A program made the translations under genes and the position numbers. The notes under the pieces were generated by a model that did not search any database, was not told where the DNA came from, and saw nothing but the letters and a program-made list of their open reading frames with translations. This document shows, in pieces, positions 37,135 to 53,744 of a stretch of 64,000 nt of DNA. How positions within the stretch are numbered: the first letter of the stretch is position 1; each line of letters starts with the position of its first letter. The DNA is from Verrucomicrobiales bacterium (GTDB lineage: Bacteria > Verrucomicrobiota > Verrucomicrobiia > Verrucomicrobiales > Akkermansiaceae). Location of the stretch: NCBI GenBank assembly GCA_038237425.1, contig JBBRYQ010000024.1, forward strand, positions 1,005 to 65,004. Direction: 5' to 3'.

Positions 37135-37150
37135 TCATTCGAAAGGATGA
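37135..37150. promoter_or_regulatory. Palindromic candidate operator, copy A
   Basis: TCATTC-GAAA-GGATGA, followed 11 nt later by TTGCCG. Lies between the divergent 37059(-) and 37233(+) genes. Confidence 0.65.
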
Positions 37151-37232
37151 GGAAGGGAAACTTGCCGACTGGCGGCGAATTGGGTGATGCTTACCACCAA
37201 AGATGCCTCGTCGGCTATTTTGTAAGAATCGT

Positions 37233-37925
37233 ATGAAAATCCATCATCGCTACTCGCCTGGACGTCTTGGTTTCACTCTCGTGGAATTGTTGGTCGTCAT
37301 CACCATCATTGTCGTGCTCGCCGCCTTGAGTGTGAGCGTTCTGTCTAATGCCAAAAGGTCGGCAAACAAGGTCCGGGCCACCAGTCAGATGCGCGAGATG
37401 GGCGTGGGAGTGGCGCTGTGGGCAGCGGAGAAGAACAATAACGAGCCGATGTATTTCCGCGATGGAAGTGGCGATTCCAGCAACGAGGCGACACCACCGC
37501 TCTCTAGCACCGGCCTGTGTGCTGGCAACCCGGCGATGTTGCTCTTCAATAAAGATAGTCCTGACGACGGCTACATTCAAAATCACGAGGTTTTCTTCTC
37601 TCCTCTCCATAAATACAAAGTGCCCGAGCGGAAAGATTACGATCCGTCCAAGGCCAGCGCCAGCAAACTCTGGGGCACCTTCATTTGGGTCTATCCCAGC
37701 GTCCCCGATGCGGATCGGACGCAACGCCAAGTCGCGGCCATGCGCAACAGTTCCTTCACCGTGGTCGGTCGGGAGGCTTACAACAATGTCCTCATGTTCG
37801 ATGACTACAGCACCGCCAAGGCGCTTTATCCCAAGCTCTATTTTGCGCTGTTCCGGGATGGTTCCGTGAGGCAGGTGGCTTTGAATGGCGATATCTGGGG
37901 TTGGTTCAAAGGCACCGCGAAGTAG
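37233..37925 (+). CDS. Prepilin-type N-terminal cleavage/methylation domain protein (PVC-type)
   Basis: MKIHHRYSPGRLG|FTLVELLVVITIIVVLAAL; C-terminal FALFRDGSV. Confidence 0.85.
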   Translation: MKIHHRYSPGRLGFTLVELLVVITIIVVLAALSVSVLSNAKRSANKVRATSQMREMGVGVALWAAEKNNNEPMYFRDGSGDSSNEATPPLSSTGLCAGNPAMLLFNKDSPDDGYIQNHEVFFSPLHKYKVPERKDYDPSKASASKLWGTFIWVYPSVPDADRTQRQVAAMRNSSFTVVGREAYNNVLMFDDYSTAKALYPKLYFALFRDGSVRQVALNGDIWGWFKGTAK

Positions 37926-37944
37926 CAGCCGTTAGCGGCACCTT

Positions 37945-37960
37945 TCATCCGAAAGGATGA
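37945..37960. promoter_or_regulatory. Palindromic candidate operator, copy B (perfect)
   Basis: TCATCC-GAAA-GGATGA, followed 11 nt later by TTGCAT; upstream of the PEP-CTERM gene. Confidence 0.7.
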
Positions 37961-38049
37961 GAGCGACTCGCTTGCATCCTCAGCGCTACCTTTGCAAACA
38001 TACCCACTGAATTTCGTCTTTAGTCCTACCAGAAACTCCCCAAAAACCT

Positions 38050-40620
38050 ATGAAACTCCGCATCAATCCATTCCTCTGTAGCGCTATCAGTCTCTTGTTT
38101 GTTGTGTCATCTCACGCCGCCAGCTTCTCATGGGATGGCACCAGCACGGGGACAGGCGCTCAAGGCGGTGTAGGAACCTGGGATTCCAACACCACCGCCA
38201 ACTGGTGGAACGGCACCACCAATGTGGTATGGCCAGCCTCCGGCACGGATAATGATGCGGTCTTCGGTGCTACTGCTGGCGCAGTTGCCGTCTCCGGAAC
38301 CGTGACAGTTAACGACATGTCCATTGCGACAGGCTACACCATTGGTGCGGACAACACGATAGGCAAGATCATCCTCAATGGCACCACTCCGACCATTACG
38401 ACTACAGGCTCAGGCGGCACTGCGAACATCGGTGCAATTATTGACGGCTCCGCAGGTCTCACCACAACGGGACCAGTCACCGTCCAACTTCGGGGGGCGA
38501 ACATCTACACCGGTGATACCCGGGTGTTGAATGGCACACTTTTAATCGGCCTCGGCAACAACCGATTGCCCACCGGGACGACGCTTATTCTGGGAGATAG
38601 CGTGGCAAACACCAGTGGCGTGTTTCAGATGAACTCACGCAGCCAGCAAGTGGCCGGCTTGCAATCTGTTGGCAGCGGCACAGGCAATCGCGTCATCAAT
38701 GGCAACGTTACCGCCAGCACCTTCACCGTCAGCAACACCACGGACCAGACATTCGGCGGAATTCTTGGTGGCACCGGGAGCAATCATAACAACTTCCTCC
38801 TGACAAAATCTGGCGCTGCAAATTTGGTTCTCACCAATACAAACACTTACACAGGTGCTACTTCGGTCTCCGTTGGCACGCTGACTTTGGCGAAGAATAA
38901 CACGCTCAGCCAATACACCAATGTCTCCATTTCCGCTGCCGCGACTCTTGCGTTGCGCACGGGTGATGGCACCACTGGATGGAGTGAGGCGCAAATTGAT
39001 ACGCTCCGTGGCACCTCTGGATTTTCCCTCGCGGCGGGATCGTTTTTGGGATTTGACACATCCACCAACGGGGATTTCACCTACAGCACAAGCATCAGCG
39101 GCAGTCCCACCTATGGATTGAGCAAGCTTGGGGCAGGCACACTTACAATTTCCGGCACAAACACCTACACGGGCACCACGGCTATCAAGAACGGGAGCCT
39201 CGCACTGACCGGCGGTAATGACCGCCTACTGACTACAGGTTCAGTCGTGCTCGGAGATGTGTCCACTGCTGGAAAGCTCATCCTTGGTGATGCGACTACC
39301 GCGAGAGACCAAACCCTTGCGGGCCTCACCGTCACTGGCACGGGTGGCAGCGTGGTGGGCGCGGCGGTCGCGAATTCAGTTCTCACCCTGAACAATGCCA
39401 GTGGCACCAATACATTCGCCGGCAAATTGGGGGGAACCGGGCTGAACGAAAATAAACTCGCCTTAACCAAGGACGGAGCAGGCACGCTCGCGCTCTCCGG
39501 CGACAACTCATTCACGGGGGATGTCACGGTGAGCGCTGGTAGGCTCGCGATTTCCCACTCCAACGCCCTCGGCACCGGCACGAAAAACTTCTTCATGCAA
39601 GGAGGGAGCCGGGTGTTCGAGATTTCCAATAACATCACGCTCGGCAGCAACATCACATTGAATGCTTCCACCAACTCCGGTGATGGCTTAGGTATTGTGA
39701 GCAGCAGCGGCACCAATGAAATTCAGGGACAAATCAACATCACGACTGGAAACGGAGTTCTTAACGTTTCCAGCACTGCCGGTACTCTGACATTGTCTGG
39801 AAATGTCACAGCGACCACGACCGGGAGAGCTTTGATCCTCGGCGGTGCATCAGCGAATGCCAACACCGTCAGCGGGATCATCAGCAATGGCGGCACACCC
39901 AACATGCCCGTCACCAAGCAGGGCGCTGGTAAGTGGGTGCTCTCCAAAGCAAACACTTACAGCGGCGACACCACCATCACAGGAGGCACACTTGCTCTCA
40001 GTGGCAGCGGCTCCATCGCTAACAGCGCGAATATCGCCGTCGCTTCGGGTGCCACTTTCGATGTGAGCACGGTCACGAGCGGCAATTGGTCCTTGGGATC
40101 CACTCAGAAACTCACCGGCAGCGGCGGGCTGACGGGGGCCACCACCATCAGTGGCACCCACAATGCGGGGGATGCCGCTACGAATGCGGGCGTTGGCTCA
40201 CAAGCATTTTCTAGCAGCCTGTCCTATGCGAATGGGTCCATTTTCGAATGGGATCTGAATGCGAGTTCCACGAGCAGCGGTTTCGACACGGTGTCCGCAG
40301 TCGGCGCAATTGGCGTGGGCACCACGAGCACTGTATTCAAGGTCCTCTTCGGCGCCACCGCCCTTGCCGACGTGCAGAACAGCGGGAATACCTTCTGGAA
40401 CACGCCCTTTGTTACCCGTGTCTGGAATATGAGCGATGTCTTTGGTAAAGCGTTTACCTCAGGTGCCTTCCAAAGTGTAGCGACCAGCTCCGATGTTTCC
40501 ACCTACGGCTCTTTCACCATCACCAGCAGCACCCTCACCTGGACCGCCGTGCCCGAGCCCACCAGTGCCTTGGCCGGTCTTCTAATCACCGCTGGCCTGC
40601 TGCGCCGGCGCCGGGCTTGA
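38050..40620 (+). CDS. PEP-CTERM surface protein with autotransporter-associated beta-strand repeats
   Basis: Repeats LTKSGAANLVLTNTNTYTGAT, LSKLGAGTLTISGTNTYTGTT, LTKDGAGTLALSGDNSFTG and VTKQGAGKWVLSKANTYSGDT. C-terminus is AVPEPTSALAGLLITAGLLRRRRA. Confidence 0.92.
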   Translation: MKLRINPFLCSAISLLFVVSSHAASFSWDGTSTGTGAQGGVGTWDSNTTANWWNGTTNVVWPASGTDNDAVFGATAGAVAVSGTVTVNDMSIATGYTIGADNTIGKIILNGTTPTITTTGSGGTANIGAIIDGSAGLTTTGPVTVQLRGANIYTGDTRVLNGTLLIGLGNNRLPTGTTLILGDSVANTSGVFQMNSRSQQVAGLQSVGSGTGNRVINGNVTASTFTVSNTTDQTFGGILGGTGSNHNNFLLTKSGAANLVLTNTNTYTGATSVSVGTLTLAKNNTLSQYTNVSISAAATLALRTGDGTTGWSEAQIDTLRGTSGFSLAAGSFLGFDTSTNGDFTYSTSISGSPTYGLSKLGAGTLTISGTNTYTGTTAIKNGSLALTGGNDRLLTTGSVVLGDVSTAGKLILGDATTARDQTLAGLTVTGTGGSVVGAAVANSVLTLNNASGTNTFAGKLGGTGLNENKLALTKDGAGTLALSGDNSFTGDVTVSAGRLAISHSNALGTGTKNFFMQGGSRVFEISNNITLGSNITLNASTNSGDGLGIVSSSGTNEIQGQINITTGNGVLNVSSTAGTLTLSGNVTATTTGRALILGGASANANTVSGIISNGGTPNMPVTKQGAGKWVLSKANTYSGDTTITGGTLALSGSGSIANSANIAVASGATFDVSTVTSGNWSLGSTQKLTGSGGLTGATTISGTHNAGDAATNAGVGSQAFSSSLSYANGSIFEWDLNASSTSSGFDTVSAVGAIGVGTTSTVFKVLFGATALADVQNSGNTFWNTPFVTRVWNMSDVFGKAFTSGAFQSVATSSDVSTYGSFTITSSTLTWTAVPEPTSALAGLLITAGLLRRRRA

Positions 40621-40694
40621 GAATCCAGGGACCCGATGCCGCAGAGATGCGGTGAGCGCAGAACTATTACGCAATCAACATTCATTTCCACCAC

Positions 40695-40757
40695 TTTGCC
40701 TCTGGAGGGAGGCAAACCCCAAGGCGGAGTCTGGTATTGGGTTTCCAGACTCCGTCT
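40695..40757 (+). other. Conserved two-hairpin intergenic element, copy 2
   Basis: TTTGCCTC-TGGAGG-GAGGCAAA (40695-40716), then AGGCGGAGTCTGG-TATTGGGTTT-CCAGACTCCGTCT (40722-40757). Confidence 0.65.
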
Positions 40758-40868
40758 GTGATGGGGGACGGGGAAGGGGTATTTGATCGGTCAGTTTGGG
40801 TTTTCTTTTACCTGCATGGGTCTTGAAGTCCTCGACTCTGCGTGGGTTCGTGCTACTCCTTATTCCAC

Positions 40869-42917
40869 ATGGCTTTTGTCCGCGCCATTCTTGGTTGTTT
40901 CCTGCTGATGTCTGCCGTTTCCGCCGCCGCGCCGTTGACTCGGCTGGCGGATATCAGGGCTTTGTCTGCGGAGGAGGCTGCCAAGGGGATTCCCGTGCGG
41001 GTCGAGGGGACAGTGGTGGCGATCGAGCCGAGTACCCGCTATCAATTTTTCCTGAATGATGGGACAACCGGTTGTTTCATCCGGCCGGTCGAAGGGGGAA
41101 GTCCGGCGGGTCTGTCGCCCGGCGATCAAGTGCGGGTAGAGGGCGTGACCGATCCACTCGGTTATTATCCCAGCGTGAGGAAAGCCCGCGTGAAGGTTTT
41201 GGGAAAACAGAGTTTGCCCACTCCGATCAAACCCGGTGCAGGTCAGATCTTCGCGCCGGAACTCGATTCGCAATGGGTGGAGGTGCCGGCGGTGATTACC
41301 GGATGTGACGTAGGTGATGATCGTGTGACGCTGGCACTGGAAATTTTCGGACTACCGTTCAAGGCAGAGCTACCACTCACTCCGGATGCGGAGGATCGTG
41401 CCGCCGCACTGATGCAGCGGCCGGTCTCGTTGTGCGGCGTGATGGGCACCATTTTCAACCGCCAGCGGCAGATGACCGACCGCCACTTTTTCGTTTCTTC
41501 CTTCGATGCGATCACGCCCACCGGTCCCTTGGCGGATGGCGAGGCCAGCCCACTAGTCAATGTGGACCGCTTGCTCAGCGGTGGATTCGGCCCGGCCACG
41601 ATGGTGCGCGTGCAGGGGGTGGTCACCCAGCAGGATGCGAAGGGATTCTATCTGCGGGACGGGAGCGGCAGCACTTTGATCCAAGCGGCTAAAGTGGTAA
41701 ATTTCCCGTGCGGAAGTCATGTCGAGGTAGAGGGCTATGCTGCGGTGGCTCCTTTCAGGCCGGTATTGCGCGCGACTCATGTGAAGAGCATGGGTCCAGC
41801 AGTGGCGGTGCTCCCCGCGCCCTTCGATTTTCAAAAAAACGATCCCCAAAATACCGATCTCGCCGCGCTGCAATCCGAATGGGTCACGCTGGATGCCGAG
41901 TTCCTCGGTCGCAGGGATGGCCCGGGGGACGCGATCCTGCAATTCCGCGGTGCCGGCCAGTTTTTCGAAGCTTTCCAGCCCCATACTACCGGTGAAATGC
42001 GTCCTGCTCTGGCCGTCGGCGACCGCGTGCGCCTCACCGGAATCTGCGAACTCACCACCACCCACGCCTTGCCGCGGATGGGCTGGGTCGATGGTTTCCG
42101 GATTCACCTGCCCGGCGTCGGCGGCTTGGAAATCCTCAGTCGCGCGCCGTGGTGGAATTCCCGGCGGTTGTTCATTGCCCTTGGACTGGCCAGCATGGTG
42201 GCTCTCTCTGGCCTGATCTGGACATGGGTGCTCCGTCGCCGCGTCAAGAGCCAGATGGCTGTCATCAGCGAGAATCTCCGCACCGAAGCAGTCGGCGAAG
42301 AACGCGACCGGATGGCCCGCGAACTCCACGATACTCTTGAGCAACAACTTCTGGGTGTGGCTCTTCAGTTAGATCGCATCGAGTCTGCTGTGCAAGAAAC
42401 TCCGGCTGCTGGCATCTTGTCGCTGGCCCGCCGGATGTTGCGGTTTACCCGCTTGGAGGCCCGCCGCTCGGTCTGGGATTTGCGCTCGAGGGTGCTGGAA
42501 GCGCACGGCCTCGCCACTGCCCTTCAGGGTCTCGCTGACTCCAAGGTGGAGGATGCTCCTGGGCCCGCGATCCAGGTCCAGGTGAGCGGAAACGAACACC
42601 CGCTCCCCACCGGCGTGGATTTCCACCTGCTGCGCATCGCCCAGGAAGCCATCACCAATGCCACCAAACACGGCGATGCCCGCCACGTCACCCTGGAACT
42701 CGACTATCTTCCCGAAGAGACCCGCCTCACGATCCGCGACGATGGCCATGGCTTCGATCCCGCTGCGGCGACCTCTCCGGGACCCCACTTCGGATTGCTT
42801 GGCATGCGCGAGCGGGCTGCCAAGATCGGGGCCACATTGGTCATTCACTCCGCCCCCGGCAAAGGATGCTCCATCATCGCCAATGTTCCCACCGTATCCA
42901 ACTCTCACTCCTCATGA
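40869..42917 (+). CDS. Membrane sensor histidine kinase (HisKA_3), same architecture as 1606-3792
   Basis: Signal peptide MAFVRAILGCFLLMSAVSAAA, OB-fold-like repeats, TM helix LFIALGLASMVALSGLIWTWVL, RMARELHDTLEQ, EAITNATKHG, DDGHGF, HFGLLGMRER. Confidence 0.9.
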   Translation: MAFVRAILGCFLLMSAVSAAAPLTRLADIRALSAEEAAKGIPVRVEGTVVAIEPSTRYQFFLNDGTTGCFIRPVEGGSPAGLSPGDQVRVEGVTDPLGYYPSVRKARVKVLGKQSLPTPIKPGAGQIFAPELDSQWVEVPAVITGCDVGDDRVTLALEIFGLPFKAELPLTPDAEDRAAALMQRPVSLCGVMGTIFNRQRQMTDRHFFVSSFDAITPTGPLADGEASPLVNVDRLLSGGFGPATMVRVQGVVTQQDAKGFYLRDGSGSTLIQAAKVVNFPCGSHVEVEGYAAVAPFRPVLRATHVKSMGPAVAVLPAPFDFQKNDPQNTDLAALQSEWVTLDAEFLGRRDGPGDAILQFRGAGQFFEAFQPHTTGEMRPALAVGDRVRLTGICELTTTHALPRMGWVDGFRIHLPGVGGLEILSRAPWWNSRRLFIALGLASMVALSGLIWTWVLRRRVKSQMAVISENLRTEAVGEERDRMARELHDTLEQQLLGVALQLDRIESAVQETPAAGILSLARRMLRFTRLEARRSVWDLRSRVLEAHGLATALQGLADSKVEDAPGPAIQVQVSGNEHPLPTGVDFHLLRIAQEAITNATKHGDARHVTLELDYLPEETRLTIRDDGHGFDPAAATSPGPHFGLLGMRERAAKIGATLVIHSAPGKGCSIIANVPTVSNSHSS

Positions 42918-43540
42918 AGTCAAAACCCATTCGCATCCTGGTCGTGGACGATCATTTCCTGCTCCGCATCGGCTTGGTCGGTGCCATTTCCGATGAGTCT
43001 GATATGGAGGTGGTCGGCGAGGCTTCAAACGGTCAGGAGGCGGTCGATAGTTTTGAATCCCTCCACCCTGATATCACTCTCATGGATGGCATGCTCCCGG
43101 ATATCCATGGCGTGGAGGCTTGCCAACAGATTTTGGAAAAACACCCGGATGCGCGCATTATCCTGATTTCTATCAATGACACTGCCGAGGATGTTCACCG
43201 TGCCTTGGACGCCGGTGTCTGGGGATACATTCCGAAGTCCTGCGAGAAAAATGCGATCCTGCATGCCATTCGGAGCGTCGCTTCAGGGGAGCGTTTCTTA
43301 CCACCCGACCTCGCGGAAAAGCTCGAAGAGCGTGACACGCATGCGCTCCTCACCAGCCGCGAGTTAGATGTCTTGCGTCTCGTCGCTAAAGGACTTGCTA
43401 ACAAACAAATCGCCGCCGAACTCGCGGTGGGAGAGCCTACCGTAAAGAGCCACGTCGCTCATATTCTTGATAAACTCGAAGTCCCGGACCGCACCCGCGC
43501 GGTGACCCTCGCCATGGAGCGCGGTTTGTTGCGCAATTGA
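42914..43540 (+). CDS. NarL/LuxR-family response regulator
   Basis: ATG 42914 overlaps the kinase stop; motifs ILVVDDH, ITLMDGMLP, LTSRELDVL...ANKQIA...TVKSHV. Confidence 0.93.
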   Translation: MKSKPIRILVVDDHFLLRIGLVGAISDESDMEVVGEASNGQEAVDSFESLHPDITLMDGMLPDIHGVEACQQILEKHPDARIILISINDTAEDVHRALDAGVWGYIPKSCEKNAILHAIRSVASGERFLPPDLAEKLEERDTHALLTSRELDVLRLVAKGLANKQIAAELAVGEPTVKSHVAHILDKLEVPDRTRAVTLAMERGLLRN

Positions 43541-43555
43541 TCTTCTCTAACGATA

Positions 43556-45109
43556 ATGGAATCCACCCACCGATCGATCAACCTCACGGGTTTCGCCCGC
43601 ATTGGCAGCCTCATCATGGCGCTTGCCGTGCTCGCCACCCATCCCCTGCAGGCTGCCACATTCGACATCCGGCGCTTCGGTGCGATTGGCGATGGCAAGA
43701 CGCCGGACACTGCTGCCATCCAGAAGGCCATCGATGCAGCGGCAGCCGCCAAGGGCGGGCAGGTGATTTTTCCTCCTGGAACCTATCTCAGCGGATCCCT
43801 GCGACTCAAAAGCCGGGTGCATCTCTATCTGGAAAAGGGCGCGACACTGCTTGGCAGCAGCAACCGTGCGGACTACCAGCGGCTCAACTTCCTGGCACTC
43901 GTGTTGGCAGACAAGCAGGAGGACATCGGCATTTCCGGCAAGGGCGTGATCGATGGAAATGGCAAGCTCCTCGCCGACGGCGTCGTGGGAACCATCAAAC
44001 CGGGGAAATTTCCCGATGCTAACGAAGCCGCGCGGCCCGCCATCATCAACTTTCGCAACTGCAGCAATATCACTGTCCGCGATATCACACTCCGTGAGAG
44101 CGCCTGCTGGGTCCAGCTCTACCGCGACTGCGACCGTGTCCTGTTGGAAAATCTAACTGTCCGCACTATGGCCGCCATCACCAATGACGGCATCGACATC
44201 GACGGCTGCTCGAATGTCATCGTCCGTGGCTGTGACATCGACTCTGAAGACGACGGGATCTGCCTCAAGTCCGGTGGCAGGATCTGCGAGAAAGTTCTGA
44301 TAGAAAACTGCCGGGTGCGCTCCAGCTGCAATGCCCTCAAGTTCGGCACCGCCTCGTTCAAGGGATTCAAAAACATCACCGTCCGAAATCTCGAAATTTA
44401 CGATACCTATCTCTCAGGCATCGCTCTGGAGTGTGTGGACGGCGGCATCCTGGAAAACGTGAATATCTCCAAGGTCCGAATGACCGATACCAACAACCCT
44501 ATTTTCATCCGGCTCGGGCGGCGCGTGCCGGAAGCACCTCCCGGTTCGGTCCGCGGCGTGACCATCAGCGACGTCATCGCGGAGATTCCCAATCGTCCAC
44601 GCGAGGAAATGAACAAATTCCCACCCTACTGGCGCCATCAATGCACCACCTTGATCACCGCATCGATCACCGGCTTGCCAGGAAATCCCGTCCGCGACGT
44701 GACGCTGAGAAATATATCAATCCTCTACGGCGGCATCGGCACCACGCCGAAGCCGGACCATCACCGCATCGATCGTCTCGACCAAGTGCCGGAATGTGCG
44801 GAGAACTATCCGGAGTCCAAGATGTTCGGCATACTGCCCGCTTGGGGATTGTATTGCCGCCATGCCGATGGCATCAAGTTGGAGAACGTCACGCTCCGGG
44901 TGAAGGGCCAGGATTATCGCCCTGCACTCGTTTGTGATGATGTGCGCAATCTCGACTTGAATGGCTTCCGCGTCCAGTCTGCTGGCGCGGAGCCGGTCAT
45001 CGTGCTCAAGGATGTGACGGGAGCGCTCATTCGCCACAGCCCGCCACCGTCAGCCGCTGGCAGTTTCATCAAAACCATGGGGAAAACGACGGATGTGAAA
45101 GCGCCTTAA
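43556..45109 (+). CDS. Secreted GH28-like beta-helix glycoside hydrolase
   Basis: Motifs FGAIGDGKTPDTAAIQKAID, PPGTYLSGSLRLKS, TNDGIDID, SEDDGICLK and NALKFGT. Confidence 0.85.
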   Translation: MESTHRSINLTGFARIGSLIMALAVLATHPLQAATFDIRRFGAIGDGKTPDTAAIQKAIDAAAAAKGGQVIFPPGTYLSGSLRLKSRVHLYLEKGATLLGSSNRADYQRLNFLALVLADKQEDIGISGKGVIDGNGKLLADGVVGTIKPGKFPDANEAARPAIINFRNCSNITVRDITLRESACWVQLYRDCDRVLLENLTVRTMAAITNDGIDIDGCSNVIVRGCDIDSEDDGICLKSGGRICEKVLIENCRVRSSCNALKFGTASFKGFKNITVRNLEIYDTYLSGIALECVDGGILENVNISKVRMTDTNNPIFIRLGRRVPEAPPGSVRGVTISDVIAEIPNRPREEMNKFPPYWRHQCTTLITASITGLPGNPVRDVTLRNISILYGGIGTTPKPDHHRIDRLDQVPECAENYPESKMFGILPAWGLYCRHADGIKLENVTLRVKGQDYRPALVCDDVRNLDLNGFRVQSAGAEPVIVLKDVTGALIRHSPPPSAAGSFIKTMGKTTDVKAP

Positions 45110-46086
45110 CGCGCCACCACCGGCACGCCGTTTTTCCACTCGATCACCACCTTGGAAAGATACCATGTCTTGCCGGTGTCGTTGTTTCCCTGATAGAACA
45201 AGTGGGTCTTTCCATCCTCATCGTTGAAAACTCCCGGGTGGCCGGATTCCGATGAGTTCCATGACCCCGGTAGGCCGTTAGGAAGCAGTGGCTTGTCAGA
45301 CACCCGCGTCCAATGAATGCCATCCGTAGAGGACGCCACGCCGATCTGCTGAGGCTCGTTGTTATAGCCGCCTGCGTAAAACATCCATAGCTTGCCGTCG
45401 CGTTGCATGATGGATGCAGCCTCGATGCATTTGGTTTCCCACGGCAGCTCCGGCTTTAAAATCGGACCATCCACCAGCTGCGTCCATTGTTTCCTGCCGT
45501 AGTCCGAGTCTAGCGGCGCCGATGCCACGCCCTGCATCTGGATCTTCATCTCGGGATCGCGTGTCGCGAAATATAGATATAACTTGTCACCCACCGGAAA
45601 GACCTCCGCATCGATCGCCCGGCCGACGGTCCACGCCCCGCTTGGCGCGAATATAGGATTCTCCAGATTGCGGGTGAAATTAATCCCATCGGTGGACCAC
45701 GCGTGGCAGATCGCATCTTTGGGGCCGTTGCCGTATGTCTGATAGAAAAGATGCACCTTGCCGCCATGGACCCACGCGGCCGGGGCGGCGAGGCCCTTTT
45801 TATCACACTCCTGCGCGGGGCCGACGACCCCCGCCTTTTCCCAATGCACCAAGTCCTTGCTCTTCGCGATTCCGACGCTCCAGCCACCCATACCAGTGGC
45901 CGGCCCAGGCAGCGAATAATACATGAGATACTCCCCGCCGAATCGAATCACCGAGGGGTCCTTGGAAAACGGCCGCCCGCTCGATTCATCCGCCCAGTGC
46001 ATTTCCGGAAGCTTCATAGCTTCCGCCGCAGCGGCCCAGCCGGAAAGAATGGCAAATAACGGAAACAGGACGCGGATTGGATTCAT
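45106..46086 (-). CDS. Secreted five-bladed beta-propeller glycosidase (GH43/GH32-like)
   Basis: Start probably ATG 46086 (MNPIRVLFPLFAILSGWAAAA); blade motifs KDPSVI, AAPAAW, IDAEVF, IEAASI, SGHPGV. Confidence 0.78.
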   Translation of the reverse strand: MNPIRVLFPLFAILSGWAAAAEAMKLPEMHWADESSGRPFSKDPSVIRFGGEYLMYYSLPGPATGMGGWSVGIAKSKDLVHWEKAGVVGPAQECDKKGLAAPAAWVHGGKVHLFYQTYGNGPKDAICHAWSTDGINFTRNLENPIFAPSGAWTVGRAIDAEVFPVGDKLYLYFATRDPEMKIQMQGVASAPLDSDYGRKQWTQLVDGPILKPELPWETKCIEAASIMQRDGKLWMFYAGGYNNEPQQIGVASSTDGIHWTRVSDKPLLPNGLPGSWNSSESGHPGVFNDEDGKTHLFYQGNNDTGKTWYLSKVVIEWKNGVPVVAR

Positions 46087-46133
46087 GTCCCCTTTGAATA
46101 ACATCGGGTTCCGAAATTCAAAGACCGAAGAAA

Positions 46134-46189
46134 TCCCCCAAAAGGATGAGACCCGCCTCCTTGTCAGGCCGTATCCCGATTTCTACACT
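46134..46189 (+). promoter_or_regulatory. Candidate operator copy C plus sigma70-like promoter of the 46217 gene
   Basis: TCCCCC-AAAA-GGATGA (46134-46149), 11 nt, TTGTCA (46161-46166), 17 nt, TACACT (46184-46189). Confidence 0.65.
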
Positions 46190-46216
46190 CTTCCGCTTAG
46201 ACCCAAAAGCCCAACC

Positions 46217-49200
46217 ATGAAAACCACCACAGTCTGTCGCGGTCTCGCAATCCTATTTCCGTTTGTAATGTGGGCGTCACCAGCCGTTGCTGCATCCCTC
46301 ACCTGGGGCGCTTCCGGCGCTGGCGGATTCGGCATCTGGGATGCCAACATCACTTCGAATTGGTTCAACGGCACCTCACCCGTGAAATGGCCCGCTCCCG
46401 CTGGCACCGATGACGACGCCGTCTTCTCTGGCACATCCGCCACCGTGAGTCTCGCCACGGGCGGAATCCGCGCGAACGACCTTGCCTTCAACACCAACGG
46501 CTACACGATCCAGAACCAAACGCTCACACTCAACGGTACTGCCCCGTCGATCACCACGGCCACCAGCGTCACGGCCACCATTTCATCATCCCTGGCAGGC
46601 ACCGCCGGACTTGCGAAAGCCGGTACCGGAACACTCGTGCTTTCGGGAACCAATGCGTTTTCCGGCAACGTGACCATTTCCGCAGGCACGCTGAAGCTCG
46701 CCCACTCGAACTCTCTCGGCACCTCCGCGAAGTCCTTGCTCCTGCAAGGCTCCAACCGCGTGCTCCATCTATCCGGCGGCATCACTCTGCCCGCCGCCAT
46801 CGGCATCACCGCCGCCACCAACTCATTCGACGGGGGCGGCATCCTCAACACGGACGGCACGAACACGATCGCCGGGAACATCAACTACAGCACCGGCAAC
46901 ACCGCGCTCAACCTCTCCAGCAACGACGGCACCCTCATCATCCAGGGAAATGTCACGCTCACCACGACCAGCCGGACCCTGCTTCTCGGGGGAAGCTCGC
47001 CCACTAACAACGCCATTCGGGGAATCATCGGCCAGAACAACAGCACCACCAACATCCTCTCAATGACCAAGCAGGGCGCGGGGACATGGATTCTATCAGG
47101 AAATAACACCTACACCGGCGTCACCACCATCACCGCTGGCACTCTCATGGCTGGCAATTCCGCCGCACTCGGAACCTCCGCCGGAATCACCGTCGTCACC
47201 GGCGGGACATTTGACTTCAACGGCACCGCGCTCAATGGCGAGTCATTCACCCTCGCAGGCGGAAAACTCGCCAACTCCGGAGCCGATCAAATCAACGCCG
47301 TGAACGGACAAGTCTCGGTCACCGCGGACAGCCGCCTGGGCGGCACCGGGCGTTGGGATTTCCGGGCCGCCGCGGCGAGCCTTGTCGTGAATTCCGGCGT
47401 CACACTCATCAAGGAGGACCCAAACCGCGTGGCCTGCGCCGCACGCCCGGTCACCAATAACGGCGGCATCCGCATCGACAGCGGAATTTTCGCCCTGCAC
47501 CAGGCAGCTGGCCACGGCGGTACAGGCATCTATCAGGTGAATTCTGGCGGAGAACTCCAGCTCGGTTCGTATGGCACGCCCGGCCTTGTCCTGCCGAACC
47601 CGGTCACCTGCGCTGGCGGCTCTCTATCATCCATCGATGCCGCCGGTGGTATCCCTTCTTTCACCGGAGTCATCACCCTTGCCTCCGCCACCACCAGTAC
47701 CATCCGCACCGACGTGGCACTCTCCATTTCCGGAGCACTCGCCGGATCCGGATCCGTGATCAAAACCGGCACCTCATCGCTGACCCTATCCGGTCCCTCC
47801 ACCCTAACCGGAATCCTGACTGTGGCAGACGGCTCCCTGGTTGCGAACGGCTCCATGCCCTCCACCCAATCCACCGTAGTCGCGGCGGGAGCCACCCTTT
47901 CGGGCACAGGAATCCTCGGCTCGATCACGATCCAGCCCTCTGGCATCCTCGCCCCTGGTACCTCATTGGGAACCCTCGCTTGTGGCGGCTCCACCGTCAT
48001 CCAAGGCCGTCTCGCCATCGAAGTCGATGGAACCACCTGTGACCGCCTCGACGTCACCGGCAATCTCGACATCTCGGCAGCCACTCTCGACCTCTCCGGA
48101 CTTGGTGCCAACTCGTCCGCCGTGCAATACGTCATCGCCACCTTCGGATCCCTCACCGGAGCCTCCTTCGCCGCAGTCAAAAACCTGCCGCCCGGCTACA
48201 CGGTGGTCTGCGATCTAACTTTGAAACAAATCCGCATCGTTCTGTCAGCCCCGTTCTACCAATCCATCGGCACCACCTTCGAGGACCGCCGCACGACCGC
48301 GCTGGAGGCCTTGCGCGGGCTGCCTTTTGTCCAGGGTTATGAGAGCCCGGATCCCACCTACGTGCGCCCGCAGAGTTACGCTCACATGGGCTTCAGTTTC
48401 CGCTGTTTCCTGAACGACGAACAGAACGCCGCCGCTAACGAATCGATCATCGCTTGCTGCGATCTCTACACGGTTCAGTCAACTTTGGACAACAACTTCG
48501 ACTGGGTCGCGGACATGGCATTCTCCATCCTCGAAAACTTCGGCAGCTCTGGAAAAATCGCCGCCGGCCGACTTTCTCCAGCAGCGGAAACCAGGCTGCT
48601 CGACGTGCTCTGGAGGCTCGCCTCGCACATGGACTACACGGATCGTTTCAACCTTGTGGCGACCAACAACACCTGGAACTTCGGCACCACCGAAAACATC
48701 GACGCCATGGGATTCTACGTCGCATGGCACGCGGCGAAACTCTTCAAGGACCACCCCGCCTATGCAGGCATGACCTACGTCGATGGCAGTACACCGGCGG
48801 CGATCTACGCGGCCAGCGCCGCCTACATCAAGGAATGGATCCGCGAGCGCGTCCGCCGCGGAGGCCTCATCGAGTTTTCCTGCGGCTTCTACAACATCGT
48901 CGCCACCAAGGGACTCCTCAACGTCATCGACTTCAGCGAGGACGCCGAAATGCGCGACCTTTCCCGCAAGTTTCTCGACCTTTTCTGGGCCAGCTGGGGA
49001 CAAGAGCAGATCGAGGGAATCAAAGGGGGTGGACAGGCGCGGATCTATCCAGGATCCGACAGTATCCTTGGCGACTTCAATCCGCTGACATCCGCCTTCT
49101 GGTTCTACACCGGTGGCTCGCAGCCCGCAGTGCCTTCGGACAACATATTCACCTTCCTCGCAAGTTCCTATCGCCCCCCCTCGCTGGTCATGGACCTGAT

Positions 49201-52200
49201 GACCGACCTGCAAGGCCGCGGGAGCTATGTGAACATCGAGCGGAAGGTCGGCATCGGCTCCTACTATCCGGAGTCCGTTCCAGATCTGGCCCAATCGTTC
49301 ACCCGCTACACCTACACCACCCCGGATTTCGTCATGGGCACCTTCCACTGCATGGCGATGCCGCAGTGGAACTGGATGATGATCAGCAGCCAGAACCGCT
49401 GGCACGGAGCCGTTTTCAAGGGTCATCCCGACTCCAGGATCTTCTTCCAGTGCGAACCCGACAGCAACGTCAGGAACTACAACCAACATTGGAGCGTGCA
49501 GAGCAAGGGCGCGATGATCGTCCAGAAGCTGGTCAATGAAGGGACGGAATCCACCCGTCACAGCAAGTACGCCTACGCGATGAGAGTTTGGGTGAGCCAG
49601 GCAAACCTCACGGGCCTCACTGAAAGCAACGGCTGGGTGTTCGCGAAATACGGAGACTCCTACGCCGCCATCAAGGTGGTGGATGGTGGATTCACATGGG
49701 TAAACGACGCAAACACCTATTTCCAGGGACAATGGATGGTGCTGAACAACGAGTATTCGCCGGTCATCCTCGAAGTCGCCAGGGCCACGGACCACTCCAG
49801 CTATCAGGATTTTCAAAACAAGATCCTCTCGCGCCCCCTGACCTACTCGGGCGGATTGCTGACCTATCAGAGTGTCGGGAACGATGCGCTCACGTTTTAT
49901 GCGAACTACAGCGCGCTTCCCAAGATCAACGGCGTATCGGTCAATCTCCAGCCCGCCAAAGCCTTCGACAGCCCCTTCGTTTACTCCACTTACGGCAGCG
50001 GAGCCGTCACGCTGAAAAAGGGCTCGCGCCAATCCACGCTGGACTTCAACTCATCCACCACGCCCACCTACACTTGGCTCGCCGGCACCGGCACCTGGAA
50101 CACCCACACGCCCAACTGGAACGGCGGCGCCACCCTCTGGCCGAACACCGGCTCAGACCTCGCGGTCTTCGAAGGACCGGCCGCCAACGTGACCCTCGAA
50201 TCCGGAATCTATCCGGCGGGCATCACCTTCAACACCGATACCACCCTCTCCGGAGCCTCGCTGGTCGCAGGCGGTGCCAACACCGCTCTAACCGTCGCCA
50301 CCGGCATCACCGCCACGATCACCAACTCCGTCGCCGGCCTCGCCGGTTTCACCAAGTCCGGACCAGGCACCCTGGTTCTGGAGGCTCCCGGAGCCTATAC
50401 TGGCACCACCCGCCTCCTCGCCGGAACCCTCCGGCTATCAGGAAACGGAAACTTCGGTCCGGGCCCTGTCATTAACAATGCATCGCTCCGCATCGCCCGT
50501 GCCGGCACCACGATCCTGCCACAATGCATCTCCGGCACCGGCTCGCTTGTCATCGAGACACCCGCACCGTCAGACACCGTGATTCTCCGCGGAGCCAGCA
50601 CCTTCAGCGGCGGAGTCACCCTCACCAAGGGAATCCTCCGCGCCACCGCCTCGTCCGCACTCGGCTCGGGAAACAAGGCGCTTTCGATCCGCAGCACAGA
50701 TGTGCGTCTGGAACTGGACGGCGCCACTTCCCCCGTCGCACTGCCCGCCTCGATCAGCTTCATCACCAGCGGCACGGCCATCGCCAACGTTGCCGGTGAC
50801 AACTCGATCCTCGGCCCCATCCAGATGAACAGCGGCGTGGGAAATACCACCATCCTCAGCGAAGTCGGCTCGCTCGTGCTCGCAGGTGCCATCAACTCCG
50901 GCAGCTCGTCGCGCACGCTCGTGCTGGCCGGAGCATCCATCGGAGCTAACAAAATCACCGGCCAGATTTCCAATGGCTCACAACCGAACAGCCTCACCAA
51001 GTCCGGCACCGGCACCTGGGAACTCGCGGGAATCCACACCTACACCGGAGCCACCATCAGCAGCTTGGGCAGGCTCATCCTCAGCGGCAGCCTCACCAGC
51101 GCGGTCACCGCCACCACCGGCACCTTCGCCACTGCGGGAAGCACACCCTCCATCACCGGCAACCTCGCGGTAAACAGCGGCGGTCGATTCGAAGCCGTCC
51201 CCGCAGCCACCCTTTCCGTCCAGGGAACCGTCACGCTCGCAGGTGCGCTCGACGTCGCCGCCCCCCCCGGACTCTATCAGGGCTCCGTTTTCACCATCCT
51301 CAACAAGACCACCACGGGCGGAATCACCGGCACCTTCGCCTCCAAACCGGAAGGCTCCACCTTCAGCCAGGGCGGATACCTCTGGCAGATCACCTACACC
51401 GGGGGAGATGGAAATGACATCGTCCTCACCATCGTCACGGGCCCCGCCACCCCGCTTGAATCATGGCGTCACGTGAGATTTGGCATCTACACCAACACCG
51501 GAATCGCTGCGGATTCCGCCGACCCCGACAACGACGGCATCACCAATCTCGTAGAATACAACCAAGGCACCGAGCCCATGGATGCCATCTCGCTCCCCTC
51601 TATGGTCTGGACTTCCACCGCTTCCGGCAACTGGTCCACCGGAGCCAACTGGAACCTCGGCATCCCACCGGTCGGAAATTCCGCCACTAAGCTCGAGTTC
51701 TTCTCCGGCCAAACCCTGGCCGCCGCCACCATCGCGCCGAACAACAACCTTGCGGGCACCTTCACCCTCAACCGCCTCGTGCTCGCGGGCACCGCCACAT
51801 CTTCCGCCACCGTGAACCTCACCGGCGGCACTCTCGACTTCCGCACCAACGGCAGCATCGCACCCACCATCCAGTTGGATGCCGGACCTGCCAGCCTTAC
51901 CTACTCCATCGCGAATGCCATGGTTCTCTCTTCGGACACCGCCCTCGAAACACCCGGCAGCGGAAAACTCATCCTCGGTGGCGTGATTTCCGGCACCAGA
52001 GCACTCATCCGCAACGGCAGCACCGGAACCGTAATCCTTGCCGGTAACAACACCTATCAGGGAGGCACCACCGTCAATGCAGGCACCCTGCAAATCGGCA
52101 ACGACGGTGCCAGCGGCTCGCCCGGTTCCGGCCCCATCCTCAATCACGGCACCCTCCGCATCGACCGCTCCGGCACGCTCAACCTAACGAACTCCATCAG

Positions 52201-53551
52201 CGGCACGGGAAGCCTCACCCTGGACAACGCGGGCACTGGGGACACCCTCACCCTCGGCGCCGATAACACCTTCACCGGCGGTGTCACCATCGCCCGTGGC
52301 ATCCTCCGCGTGAACCGTTCCGCCTCGCTTGGAAACGCCGCCAAGACTGTCACCGCCACTACCGGAACCGCACGACTCGAACTCGACGGCACCACCGCCC
52401 CCGTCAACCTGCCGCCCGGCATCTCCATCAACATCAGCGGTTCCCAGTCGGGAGGATCGCTCCGGAATCATGCGGGGGACAACACCATCGCAGGAACCCT
52501 CGGAGCCGCCACCGGTGCTGGAAACTCCCTCGTATCAAGTGACGGGGGCTCCCTCACCCTGGCAGGAGACGTCAGAACCGTGAACTCGGGCGGGCGCACC
52601 CTGGTCCTTGGCGGAGCCTCCACCGGACCTAACAACATCTCAGGCCGGATGTACAACGGCACCAGCACGCTGATCGTCCAGAAGACAGGCACCTCCACCT
52701 GGGCCATTTCCCATCCGAACAACACCTACACCGGCACCACCACCCTCAACGCGGGGAAACTCATCCTCAGCGGCTCACTCACCAGCGACATTATCACCAA
52801 TGCCGCCACCCTCGCACCGCAGGGCACGCCCGCCACCACCGGCAGCCTCAGCCTGATTGCCACATCCATCTACCAGATCCGTGCGACCACCTCCGGCACG
52901 GACCAGCTCACCGTCGCCGGCAGCGTCAACCTCACCGGAAACCTCGACCTCATCCCGGACTCCGGCCTATCTGGAGGCGCGTTCACCATTCTGAACAAGA
53001 CCAGCCCGGGTGCCGTCACCGGCACCTTCACCGGCAAGCCCGAGGGCTCCACGTTCAACATCGGCGGCTACGACTGGCAGATCACCTACACCGGCGGTGA
53101 CGGCAACGACGTCGTCATCTCCTTGCCATCCCAGCTCGCCAGCAACAGCATTCTCGCTCCCGCCACCGCCATCGAAGCCTGGCGGGAACTCCACTTCGCC
53201 ACCACTGAAAACACCGGCAACGCCGCCGACACATTCGATGCTGACAGCGACGGCGAACCCAACCTCCTCGAGTTCGCCACCGCCCAAAGCCCGCACGCCG
53301 CCACCCTCGCCAGCACCATGCTGTCGCCATCCGGCAACGATTTCCTCTTCACCTACACCCGCAGCAAGGCCGCCGTGGTCGAAGGATACTCCTTCAGCGT
53401 CGAGTGGTCCGACACACCCGCCGCTCCTTGGACGCCCGCTGTCTCCGACCCGCCGGTTTCCCTCGATGCCACCCGTGAGTCCGTCCCCACCGCCATCCCC
53501 GCCGGCCCGCACGGCCGCCGCTTCGTTCGAGTCAGAATCGGCTCGCCATGA
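46217..53551 (+). CDS. 2444-aa secreted protein: beta-strand repeat stalk + unassigned ~600-aa enzyme-like domain + duplicated repeat blocks + shared C-terminal module
   Basis: Start ATG 46217 (MKTTTVCRGLAILFPFVMWASPAVA). Many xxKxGxGTLxLxGxNTYxG repeats; a non-repetitive aromatic-rich insert at ~48275-50050; DADSDGEPNLLEFA; ends RFVRVRIGSP. Confidence 0.88.
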   Translation: MKTTTVCRGLAILFPFVMWASPAVAASLTWGASGAGGFGIWDANITSNWFNGTSPVKWPAPAGTDDDAVFSGTSATVSLATGGIRANDLAFNTNGYTIQNQTLTLNGTAPSITTATSVTATISSSLAGTAGLAKAGTGTLVLSGTNAFSGNVTISAGTLKLAHSNSLGTSAKSLLLQGSNRVLHLSGGITLPAAIGITAATNSFDGGGILNTDGTNTIAGNINYSTGNTALNLSSNDGTLIIQGNVTLTTTSRTLLLGGSSPTNNAIRGIIGQNNSTTNILSMTKQGAGTWILSGNNTYTGVTTITAGTLMAGNSAALGTSAGITVVTGGTFDFNGTALNGESFTLAGGKLANSGADQINAVNGQVSVTADSRLGGTGRWDFRAAAASLVVNSGVTLIKEDPNRVACAARPVTNNGGIRIDSGIFALHQAAGHGGTGIYQVNSGGELQLGSYGTPGLVLPNPVTCAGGSLSSIDAAGGIPSFTGVITLASATTSTIRTDVALSISGALAGSGSVIKTGTSSLTLSGPSTLTGILTVADGSLVANGSMPSTQSTVVAAGATLSGTGILGSITIQPSGILAPGTSLGTLACGGSTVIQGRLAIEVDGTTCDRLDVTGNLDISAATLDLSGLGANSSAVQYVIATFGSLTGASFAAVKNLPPGYTVVCDLTLKQIRIVLSAPFYQSIGTTFEDRRTTALEALRGLPFVQGYESPDPTYVRPQSYAHMGFSFRCFLNDEQNAAANESIIACCDLYTVQSTLDNNFDWVADMAFSILENFGSSGKIAAGRLSPAAETRLLDVLWRLASHMDYTDRFNLVATNNTWNFGTTENIDAMGFYVAWHAAKLFKDHPAYAGMTYVDGSTPAAIYAASAAYIKEWIRERVRRGGLIEFSCGFYNIVATKGLLNVIDFSEDAEMRDLSRKFLDLFWASWGQEQIEGIKGGGQARIYPGSDSILGDFNPLTSAFWFYTGGSQPAVPSDNIFTFLASSYRPPSLVMDLMTDLQGRGSYVNIERKVGIGSYYPESVPDLAQSFTRYTYTTPDFVMGTFHCMAMPQWNWMMISSQNRWHGAVFKGHPDSRIFFQCEPDSNVRNYNQHWSVQSKGAMIVQKLVNEGTESTRHSKYAYAMRVWVSQANLTGLTESNGWVFAKYGDSYAAIKVVDGGFTWVNDANTYFQGQWMVLNNEYSPVILEVARATDHSSYQDFQNKILSRPLTYSGGLLTYQSVGNDALTFYANYSALPKINGVSVNLQPAKAFDSPFVYSTYGSGAVTLKKGSRQSTLDFNSSTTPTYTWLAGTGTWNTHTPNWNGGATLWPNTGSDLAVFEGPAANVTLESGIYPAGITFNTDTTLSGASLVAGGANTALTVATGITATITNSVAGLAGFTKSGPGTLVLEAPGAYTGTTRLLAGTLRLSGNGNFGPGPVINNASLRIARAGTTILPQCISGTGSLVIETPAPSDTVILRGASTFSGGVTLTKGILRATASSALGSGNKALSIRSTDVRLELDGATSPVALPASISFITSGTAIANVAGDNSILGPIQMNSGVGNTTILSEVGSLVLAGAINSGSSSRTLVLAGASIGANKITGQISNGSQPNSLTKSGTGTWELAGIHTYTGATISSLGRLILSGSLTSAVTATTGTFATAGSTPSITGNLAVNSGGRFEAVPAATLSVQGTVTLAGALDVAAPPGLYQGSVFTILNKTTTGGITGTFASKPEGSTFSQGGYLWQITYTGGDGNDIVLTIVTGPATPLESWRHVRFGIYTNTGIAADSADPDNDGITNLVEYNQGTEPMDAISLPSMVWTSTASGNWSTGANWNLGIPPVGNSATKLEFFSGQTLAAATIAPNNNLAGTFTLNRLVLAGTATSSATVNLTGGTLDFRTNGSIAPTIQLDAGPASLTYSIANAMVLSSDTALETPGSGKLILGGVISGTRALIRNGSTGTVILAGNNTYQGGTTVNAGTLQIGNDGASGSPGSGPILNHGTLRIDRSGTLNLTNSISGTGSLTLDNAGTGDTLTLGADNTFTGGVTIARGILRVNRSASLGNAAKTVTATTGTARLELDGTTAPVNLPPGISINISGSQSGGSLRNHAGDNTIAGTLGAATGAGNSLVSSDGGSLTLAGDVRTVNSGGRTLVLGGASTGPNNISGRMYNGTSTLIVQKTGTSTWAISHPNNTYTGTTTLNAGKLILSGSLTSDIITNAATLAPQGTPATTGSLSLIATSIYQIRATTSGTDQLTVAGSVNLTGNLDLIPDSGLSGGAFTILNKTSPGAVTGTFTGKPEGSTFNIGGYDWQITYTGGDGNDVVISLPSQLASNSILAPATAIEAWRELHFATTENTGNAADTFDADSDGEPNLLEFATAQSPHAATLASTMLSPSGNDFLFTYTRSKAAVVEGYSFSVEWSDTPAAPWTPAVSDPPVSLDATRESVPTAIPAGPHGRRFVRVRIGSP

Positions 53552-53645
53552 GATGCTCCCCGCCAGAAGCAGAGAGGTATCGATGAATATCATCACCGAA
53601 GGAGCTTTAACGATCACTGGTTTTGAGGAAGCTAATTTGCCGGTG

Positions 53646-53661
53646 TCACCCGAAAGGATGA
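53646..53661. promoter_or_regulatory. Palindromic candidate operator, copy D
   Basis: TCACCC-GAAA-GGATGA, 11 nt, TTGGTC, 17 nt, CATGCT; upstream of 53745. Confidence 0.62.
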
Positions 53662-53744
53662 GACTGAGGGAGTTGGTCGTGCTTAAAGATTGGTTCATGC
53701 TTAGCGTGAAAGCCTAGATCGTCGGATTTAAACTCAGATTATTA

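Follow-up and report, generated by a model that had tools for sequence, protein, structure and literature searches.

NarL-family response regulators bind as dimers to inverted half-sites located 5' of the promoters they control, and the heptamers recognised by NarL itself (TACYYMT) are arranged in a 7-2-7 configuration, often far upstream and together with co-activators. DesK and VraS sense membrane or cell-wall stress and have extracytoplasmic domains that are small or absent, and PrsR, a regulator of PEP-CTERM proteins, belongs to the enhancer-binding proteins that depend on sigma-54. The Verrucomicrobiota are, in soils as well as in fresh and sea water, major degraders of complex polysaccharides. 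A described operator of this general kind is the box of ComA, a response regulator with a tetrahelical helix-turn-helix (HTH) domain, in which 4 nt separate two inverted hexamers (TTGCGG-N4-CCGCAA) lying 5' of the RNA polymerase site; its half-sites are unequally conserved, and ComA activates transcription of a regulon of ~9 units (PMC4797271). Here we analyze a stretch of 64,000 nucleotides (hereafter, the window), positions 1005–65004 of contig C24 in a Luteolibacter (Verrucomicrobiota) draft genome of 5.38 Mb, 180 contigs, and 57.8% GC (G000), where four copies of a TCATCC-N4-GGATGA-like inverted repeat precede predicted promoters on both sides of a two-component system (TCS). The latter is made up of a sensor histidine kinase (HK, 40869–42917, + strand) and a NarL/LuxR-type response regulator with REC and GerE HTH domains (RR, 42914–43540, + strand), our proposed motif binder. 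The comparative evidence below shows that these sites are a real, conserved promoter element, and we consider it very likely that they are the DNA operator of this RR, whose partner is the kinase.

The motif is rare, conserved, placed at a fixed distance from a promoter and co-inherited with the TCS. The four window copies, all on the + strand, share the signature TCNNYC-RAAA-GGATGAG, in which a G and 10 further nt (11 nt in all) separate GGATGA from a TTG, with an xAxxxT hexamer 17–18 nt later. Site 1 (TCATTC-GAAA-GGATGA-G, 37135–37151) lies 5' of a prepilin-like gene and is followed by predicted promoter 1 (37162–37191, + strand; −35 TTGCCG, 18-nt spacer, −10 GATGCT), with a geometry that is kept over the 31 sites described below; its orthologs precede prepilin-like genes in five other Luteolibacter genomes (G005, G048, G055, G057, and G082). 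Site 2 (TCATCC-GAAA-GGATGA-G, 37945–37961), a perfect 6-4-6 palindrome, is followed by predicted promoter 2 (37972–38001, + strand; TTGCAT, 18 nt, AAACAT), site 3 (TCCCCC-AAAA-GGATGA-G, 46134–46150), whose G082 ortholog adjoins a gene of the glycoside hydrolase (GH) 43-like type, by predicted promoter 3 (46161–46189, + strand; TTGTCA, 17 nt, TACACT), and site 4 (TCACCC-GAAA-GGATGA-G, 53646–53662) by predicted promoter 4 (53673–53701, + strand; TTGGTC, 17 nt, CATGCT). An initial annotation had listed these four sites, and direct look-up agreed with it on coordinates, sequences, and strand, on the TTG after 11 nt and the hexamer after 18, 18, 17, and 17 nt, on the intergenic location shortly before starts (the repeats end 67–89 nt from the start codons) and on the position of sites 1 and 3 between divergent genes. 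The promoter-proximal half-site, which it described as invariant, is in fact part of an even longer constant block in the window, the 10 nt AAAGGATGAG.

GGATGAG-N10-TTG is found six times in the window against 0.21 expected, and none of 100 shuffles reached that number. In the whole G000 genome, AAAGGATGAG-N10-TTG appears exactly five times, i.e., at the four window sites and at C102:1888 (site 5), and C102:9438 carries a sixth that deviates by a single G>T change (TCATCC-GAAA-TGATGAT-N10-TTG). Scored with a position weight matrix (PWM) that spans the 20-bp core alone and whose training sites include all six of them, these sites reach 24.9–32.3 bits (26.9, 26.7, 28.9, and 24.9 bits for sites 1–4), while the next match, lacking a −35, has 21.4 bits and the remainder ≤18.6 bits. 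Pattern and PWM scans, the frequency check that the initial annotation had suggested, gave these six sites only and not a motif common at random positions. Each of the six lies between genes and has the same orientation as a downstream gene encoding a signal peptide, and across genomes the genes that follow the sites code for signal-peptide proteins of recurring classes. The predicted regulon is thus larger than it had first seemed, with two further promoters beside GH29, DUF4450, and GH106 genes on C102, a separate 15.4-kb contig (locus L001, 1–15400) holding its second part: downstream of site 5 lie, in this order, genes for a PATR-repeat GDSL esterase, GH29, and a DUF4450 protein of 1202 aa, and site 6 precedes a 773-aa PATR protein and then a GH106 alpha-L-rhamnosidase. 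As the GH106 ortholog and the TCS share a locus in G057 and G082, C102 may physically neighbour the window in the real chromosome.

Co-inheritance was followed in 81 Luteolibacter genomes (G000 and 80 others), the same set serving for kinase and motif searches. The kinase belongs to an expanded family, with eight full-length paralogs in G000 (29–36% identity) and up to 13 in one relative; its orthologs, at 59–65% identity, are present in seven of the 80 other genomes (G005, G022, G048, G055, G057, G082, and G093). A 30-nt pattern, TCNNYCRAAAKGATGA-N11-TTG, was detected in eight of the 81 genomes, seven of which carry the kinase ortholog if G000 is counted, with six copies in G000, three in G005, five in G048, four in G055, five in G057, five in G082, two in G093, and one in G042; the reversed pattern, used as control, had 0 matches in all 81. 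Conversely, seven of the eight ortholog carriers have the motif, always in multiple copies, and the eighth, G022, has degenerate copies only (TCATTC-AAAA-TGATGAT past the RR gene and TCATTC-GAAA-GGATGAT with a −35 ATGACA before GH28). The single G042 match has no downstream open reading frame (ORF), and one match of this kind is within what chance would give. Fisher's exact test for motif against kinase ortholog gave p ~2e-8 over the 81 genomes, which, as for all genus-level statistics given here, are related and not independent samples. Among 300 further genomes of the phylum (149 genera) we found just two single, coding-looking, chance-like matches with no TCS or regulon homolog nearby, and the control gave 0.

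Beyond the genus, a scan of named genomes supplied full-length kinase orthologs of 52–58% identity, both from Opitutaceae, among them the isolate Horticoccus sp. 23ND18S-11, and from further members of the Verrucomicrobiota. Four of these distant loci contain (A)TCATCC-GAAA-GGATGAT-N10-TTGA[CT] within ~150 nt past the RR gene, with the variant TCCCCC-TAAA-GGATGAT at L098, and this motif had 0 matches in 1.0 Mb of unrelated control loci, even with one mismatch allowed. The site precedes there a TonB-dependent receptor gene, followed by GH2, GH43-like, and GH29 genes, and L095 has extra sites before a GH106 gene and one more gene. By tblastn synteny, HK and RR, always adjacent, are the only genes that all lineages have by the sites; most motif-bearing lineages also have a GH106 ortholog (57–79% identity), and DUF4450, GH29, GH43-like, GH28, prepilin-like, PATR, and ~600-aa enzyme-like-domain proteins are variably recurring neighbours. 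In every motif-bearing ortholog the RR recognition helix is T-[VI]-K-[ST]-H-[VI]-x-H-I-L; the G000 paralogs of the RR and the RR of a motif-less Chthoniobacter locus (L099) have other residues there.

These comparisons point to the RR as the binder. The operator could also be real and yet bound by another transcription factor co-inherited with the glycan locus, be it an unlinked regulator or the second, paralogous RR found far off at ~3804–4409 of the window, the local TCS then acting elsewhere. Co-occurrence is indeed correlative among related genomes, and the window does hold a second RR/HK pair and an AraC gene. We judge this explanation unlikely, given that short contigs and distant lineages (G048:C618, G093:C430, and L094–L098) show the orthologous HK and RR as the sole adjacent regulators, that the AraC gene recurs in none of the motif-bearing loci of the tblastn synteny table, that the RR at ~3804–4409 has a different recognition helix, and that the site comes within ~150 nt past the RR stop codon at five loci that are distant or degenerate. 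The two response regulators that the initial annotation counted in the TCS locus reduce to one (42914–43540), the ORF at 43556–45109 being a GH28 glycosidase.

Column conservation was computed over 31 non-identical sites from eight genomes. The GGATGA arm and the AAA before it are invariant in all of them, and the distal arm reads T-C-[C/A]-N-[C/T]-C. Position 16, a column left unconstrained in the search, has only G (22 sites) or T (9 sites), the T completing a 7-bp palindrome. A C stands directly 5' of TTG in 23 of the 31 sites, and TTGC is found in 21. The hexamer exactly 17 nt past TTGnnn, also unconstrained, has A at position 2 (A51) in 24/31 and T at position 6 (T55) in 21/31. When the core-only pattern TCNNYCRAAAKGATGAK was run on five ortholog-bearing genomes with the TTG spacing left free, 26 matches were obtained (control 0), and 22 of them had TTG at exactly +11, where it is expected by chance in ~1.3% (binomial tail near 1e-38); one further match has ATGACA in the −35 position. 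The promoters show the conserved −35 and −10 hexamers and 17±1-nt spacer of the activator-dependent sigma-70 class, with an inverted-repeat operator at a fixed distance 5' of the −35. A generic sigma-70 scan called promoter 3 alone (TTGTCA-17-TACACT, one of four), and the weakness of the other three core promoters is as expected under activator dependence. Two other promoter types were rejected, namely sigma-54 (−24/−12), by the distance from GG to TTGC (17 nt, not 10) and the lack of a sigma-54 activator in the locus (the 517-aa ORF is GH28), and an extracytoplasmic function (ECF) sigma factor reading of GGATGAG-N10-TTG, by the spacing and the absence of any such regulator in the locus.

We propose that the phosphorylated RR dimer would bind the imperfect 6-4-6 inverted repeat TCNNYC-RAAA-GGATGA(G/T), presumably derived from an ancestral ATCATCC-GAAA-GGATGAT, in which the promoter-proximal half-site hardly varies and its distal counterpart is degenerate. 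The proximal half-site ends exactly 11 bp 5' of a weak predicted promoter of the sigma-70 type (TTGnnn, 17±1 nt, yAnnnT). If the transcription start site (TSS) is taken as 6–7 nt past the −10 hexamer, the operator would extend from about −62 to −46 with its dyad at about −54.5, some two helical turns (~22 bp) away from the middle of the −35 hexamer, and a dimer placed there would recruit RNA polymerase in a class-I-like manner. The six promoters would then drive the prepilin-like protein, the PEP-CTERM/PATR surface protein, the 2444-aa PATR giant, the lyase/LamG giant operon and, from C102, the GDSL esterase-GH29-DUF4450 operon and the PATR protein near the GH106 rhamnosidase.

Activation as the predicted effect also comes from comparative evidence, and the same sites might be read in the opposite sense, the RR being a repressor or anti-activator at the element, or the site serving mainly the divergent genes. 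The near-palindromic form, the two copies between divergent genes, the G082 ortholog site by the GH43-like gene, which has lost its + strand −35, and the G022 site preceding GH28, divergent to the prepilin gene, would all fit. However, the site lies 5' of the −35 and not over it, the 11-nt distance is fixed in the 22 of 26 core matches, three of the four core promoters are too weak for the generic consensus scan, as activator dependence would have it, and the orientation is always co-directional with the downstream gene. On the minus strand, no TTG or −35 was seen at the mirrored distance for the genes at 35131–37059 and 45106–46104, and there is no room for a GH43-like promoter at site 3 because the dyad is only ~37 nt from the GH43-like ATG (~55 nt from the alternative Met7). 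We therefore find this reading quite improbable, and the control of the divergent genes that the initial annotation contemplated finds no support in the sequence. Its broader idea, a local NarL-type TCS activating a regulon, keeps the link to the TCS, which is strongly favoured by co-occurrence, by the presence of the motif with the TCS in Opitutaceae, by HK and RR being the only shared regulators, and by recognition helix and promoter geometry.

A hairpin at the RNA or DNA level, with a 6-bp stem and a GAAA tetraloop acting as terminator, processing site, or 5' untranslated region structure, was suggested by site 2, which, ~20 nt past the prepilin-like stop codon, can fold into a perfect stem of 6 bp with a GNRA loop. 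Stem pairs 3 and 4 are each formed in only six of the 31 sites, all changes fall in the distal arm, uncompensated, and none in the proximal arm or the loop A's, no T tract follows the sites, and the fixed distance 5' of the conserved −35/−10 means that the element is probably untranscribed from that promoter. We regard a hairpin as very improbable, and since the distal half-site varies without compensation we take the element to be a DNA operator. That the motif is a chance repeat or a mobile or intergenic-repeat remnant with no regulatory role is barely credible even though G000 does hold intergenic repeats of the repetitive extragenic palindrome (REP) type, e.g., on C19, as conservation is limited to the 17 bp, the TTG, and the −10 positions, with unrelated sequence in the flanks and in the 10-nt spacer, as it reaches a different class of the phylum, and as shuffle and reversed-pattern controls gave ~0 matches.

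The REP-like element is a ~50-nt intergenic repeat, cctgaaaNagcc...GGAGGGCGGGgaaaNgggggTTG, with five copies on G000:C19 at 57, 351, 3728(−), 3925(−), and 19134(−). For the closest paralog group (44–50% identity), a variant palindrome on G022:C9, TCACCC-N4-GGGTGA, was also considered and discarded, given that the same 16-mer is found elsewhere without the kinase family and has no −35 at +11. This perfect 16-bp palindrome, TCACCYGATCGGGTGA, is located at G000:C6:45091–45106, at G057:C98:149 and 10036, and at G022:C9:114832 and 119257; no kinase of the HK family is present on G000:C6 or G057:C98, and it is probably the operator of some other regulator.

Several observations weigh against the assignment of the motif to this RR as an activator. 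Co-occurrence across related genomes is not independent evidence, and by itself it does not tell this RR from another factor co-inherited with the locus. In most Luteolibacter sites the distal half matches the palindrome at 4/6 positions only, and many of them fit an alternative symmetry, CATCC-N7-GGATG, so that the dimer geometry proposed here is tentative. The perfect 6/7-4-6/7 palindromes are those of G000 site 2 and of the Opitutaceae sites (by locus, site 2, C102:9438, L094, L095, and L097 are counted as perfect), the distal arm being degenerate elsewhere, and for this reason we take the 6-4-6 repeat as ancestral and its distal half as relaxed in Luteolibacter. A dyad at about −54.5 is no canonical class I or class II position, counted from a predicted TSS. 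There is no site directly 5' of HK in G000, the 248-nt gap containing only a hairpin, and autoregulation there needs read-through. Finally, no analogous motif turned up for the paralogous TCSs: at their loci in G000, a search for repeated 9-mers at a fixed offset from TTG retrieved only the C19 REP-like repeats and coding PATR repeats.

The predicted target genes in the window are the following. Site 1 precedes a 230-aa protein with a prepilin-type N-terminal methylation motif (37233–37925, + strand; Pfam N_methyl, TIGR02532), and site 2 an 856-aa PATR-repeat surface protein (38050–40620, + strand; Pfam PATR) with a PEP-CTERM tail, VPEP...RRRRA, at its C-terminus VPEPTSALAGLLITAGLLRRRRA. The target of site 3 is a PATR-repeat giant surface protein of 2444 aa (46217–53551, + strand), and that of site 4 an operon of two giant genes (53745–63763, + strand) whose ORFs overlap by 4 nt, a 1717-aa heparinase II/III-like lyase with LamG and PATR (53745–58898) and a 1622-aa LamG and PATR protein (58895–63763). 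Divergent to site 3 is the GH43-like gene (45106–46104, − strand), and divergent to site 1 a 642-aa protein of the ~600-aa enzyme-like domain (35131–37059, − strand). Apart from this free protein, the domain inserts in the window into the products of 46217–53551 and 58895–63763, and relatives were seen at L095:15990–17933, L097:16158–17963, L098:16173–17957, and L093:12774–14531; in the Opitutaceae relatives it is a free protein inside the motif-driven TonB-receptor operon, and in G022 it follows the RR gene. The domain looks like a conserved regulon member, and the 642-aa gene may belong to the system functionally, as its homologs are regulon members elsewhere.

Within the TCS operon, the start ATG of RR overlaps the HK stop (ATGA at 42914–42917), which suggests translational coupling; ATG 42914 is the most likely RR start, rather than the longer ORF start at 42866. 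The GH28 gene (43556–45109, + strand; Pfam, rhamnogalacturonidase-like) begins 16 nt past the RR gene and is probably in the same operon. HK, RR, and GH28 may be co-transcribed downstream of the PEP-CTERM gene, and the site 2 transcript would probably read through into them. Between the PEP-CTERM gene and the kinase lies the hairpin mentioned above (40726–40753), whose stem measures 9 bp (GGAGTCTGG...CCAGACTCC); it lacks a T tract and may modulate the read-through. Autoregulation is plausible in G000 by this route, and likely in G005 and G093, where a site stands directly before HK.

In the kinase, a signal or transmembrane (TM) segment is followed by a periplasmic all-beta sensor of ~400 aa, a second TM segment, HisKA_3 (Pfam, 2.7e-10), and HATPase_c (2e-11), and the RR matches Response_reg (2.3e-26) and GerE (1.1e-18). 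The REC-GerE regulator, the HisKA_3/HATPase_c kinase, and the adjacent co-oriented genes (adjacent in all orthologous loci) are those of a NarL/FixJ-type TCS. The best NCBIfam matches of the RR are NarL, NarP, MadR, and MctR; the NarL score is 158.6 bits against an equivalog cutoff of 250, and all NCBIfam scores of the TCS fall below their cutoffs, so that by these models it is of NarL/FixJ type and no equivalog of any named system. An AlphaFold2 model of the kinase, built from an alignment of 14 orthologs and paralogs (mean pLDDT 81, periplasmic part 85–93), has four small all-beta barrels, a long TM/signalling helix, and a DesK/VraS-like catalytic core, the cytoplasmic part matching DesK and VraS by Foldseek with E of 1e-9 to 1e-10 and a TM-score of up to 0.86 (normalised to target). 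The periplasmic sensor (window 40869–42200) had no Pfam match and no PDB sequence match, and Foldseek gave for it a weak fold similarity to tandem OB (HIN) domains and no other. It is a candidate for a new glycan-sensor domain family of Verrucomicrobiota. Since GH106, GH29, GH28, GH43-like, lyase, and GDSL esterase genes are conserved and fucose-catabolism genes are neighbours, the comparative evidence favours a rhamnose/fucose-containing polysaccharide as the source of the signal, and the sensor probably detects one of its products. More tentatively, this HK-RR pair might be one of a large verrucomicrobial glycan-sensor family with four OB-like barrels and a role like that of the hybrid TCSs of Bacteroidota, its operator being the first cis-regulatory code of a verrucomicrobial polysaccharide-utilisation regulon and the solitary prepilin-like protein and PEP-CTERM/PATR giants being substrate-induced with the carbohydrate-active enzymes (CAZymes). 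If this were true, it would imply a substrate-inducible, pseudopilin-assisted apparatus for surface display or secretion, directed to a rhamnose/fucose-rich glycan.

A full-text literature search retrieved no description of this regulon or motif, nor of a regulator-operator pair for the CAZyme loci of Verrucomicrobiota. The mechanism is conventional, a NarL-type dimer on an inverted repeat 5' of the −35 being already known, and what appears new is the assignment of regulator, operator, and regulon, well supported by the comparisons, in an under-studied phylum. It provides a concrete, testable regulon of six promoters in G000 and 2–6 per related species, with a 17-bp operator and fixed promoter geometry, which would join GH106, GH29, GH28, GH43-like, and lyase enzymes with the ~600-aa enzyme-like domain, the prepilin-like proteins, and the PEP-CTERM/PATR giants. 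Direct experiments are feasible in the cultured isolate Horticoccus sp. 23ND18S-11, where the TCS is present together with a perfect palindrome before the TonB-receptor operon.

Compared with described systems, the pair resembles NarX/NarL and NarQ/NarP of Escherichia coli in its best NCBIfam scores and in the HisKA_3 kinase class, but its scores are below the equivalog cutoffs, and sensor and signal are unrelated. It shares with DesK-DesR and VraS-VraR a HisKA_3 kinase with a NarL-type RR and a matching predicted cytoplasmic structure, unlike them having a periplasmic sensor of ~400 aa. The PEP-CTERM link recalls PrsK/PrsR and EpsA, the latter also sharing a LuxR-type HTH; however, the NCBIfam search gave no match to the PrsK/PrsR models and only 47 bits for EpsA, far below the cutoff of 170, and the promoters here are sigma-70-like, unlike the −24/−12 promoters of PrsR. 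Judged by these models, the TCS is not a PEP-CTERM regulator of the PrsK/PrsR or EpsA type.

The regulators of polysaccharide utilization loci (PULs) in Bacteroidota (hybrid TCSs, or HTCSs, SusR, and ECF/anti-sigma pairs) are similar in logic, as a periplasm-facing sensor in or by a CAZyme locus switches the locus on; the likeness extends to the TonB-dependent receptor of the Opitutaceae relatives and to the many paralogs of the sensor family per genome. They are nevertheless not homologous, and no SusC/SusD pair was found in the window. In the HTCSs a single hybrid chain joins a beta-propeller/Y_Y_Y sensor to an AraC-type output, whereas the present system divides these tasks in the classical way between two proteins, a HisKA_3 kinase whose sensor modules are OB-like beta-barrels and a NarL-type regulator. 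In its DNA-level organization the locus is like ComP-ComA of Bacillus subtilis, with a REC and GerE-type HTH regulator, a 6-4-6 inverted repeat 5' of the RNA polymerase site, and a small regulon. Unlike in the ComA box, the half-site here is GGATGA, the 10-nt spacer of the present sites showed no second direct-repeat element, and the −35 follows at a constant distance of 11 nt. The kinases also differ, a large periplasmic all-beta sensor standing here in place of the peptide-sensing membrane domain of ComP, and so do the targets, which unlike those of ComP-ComA would be glycan-degrading and surface proteins in Verrucomicrobiota.

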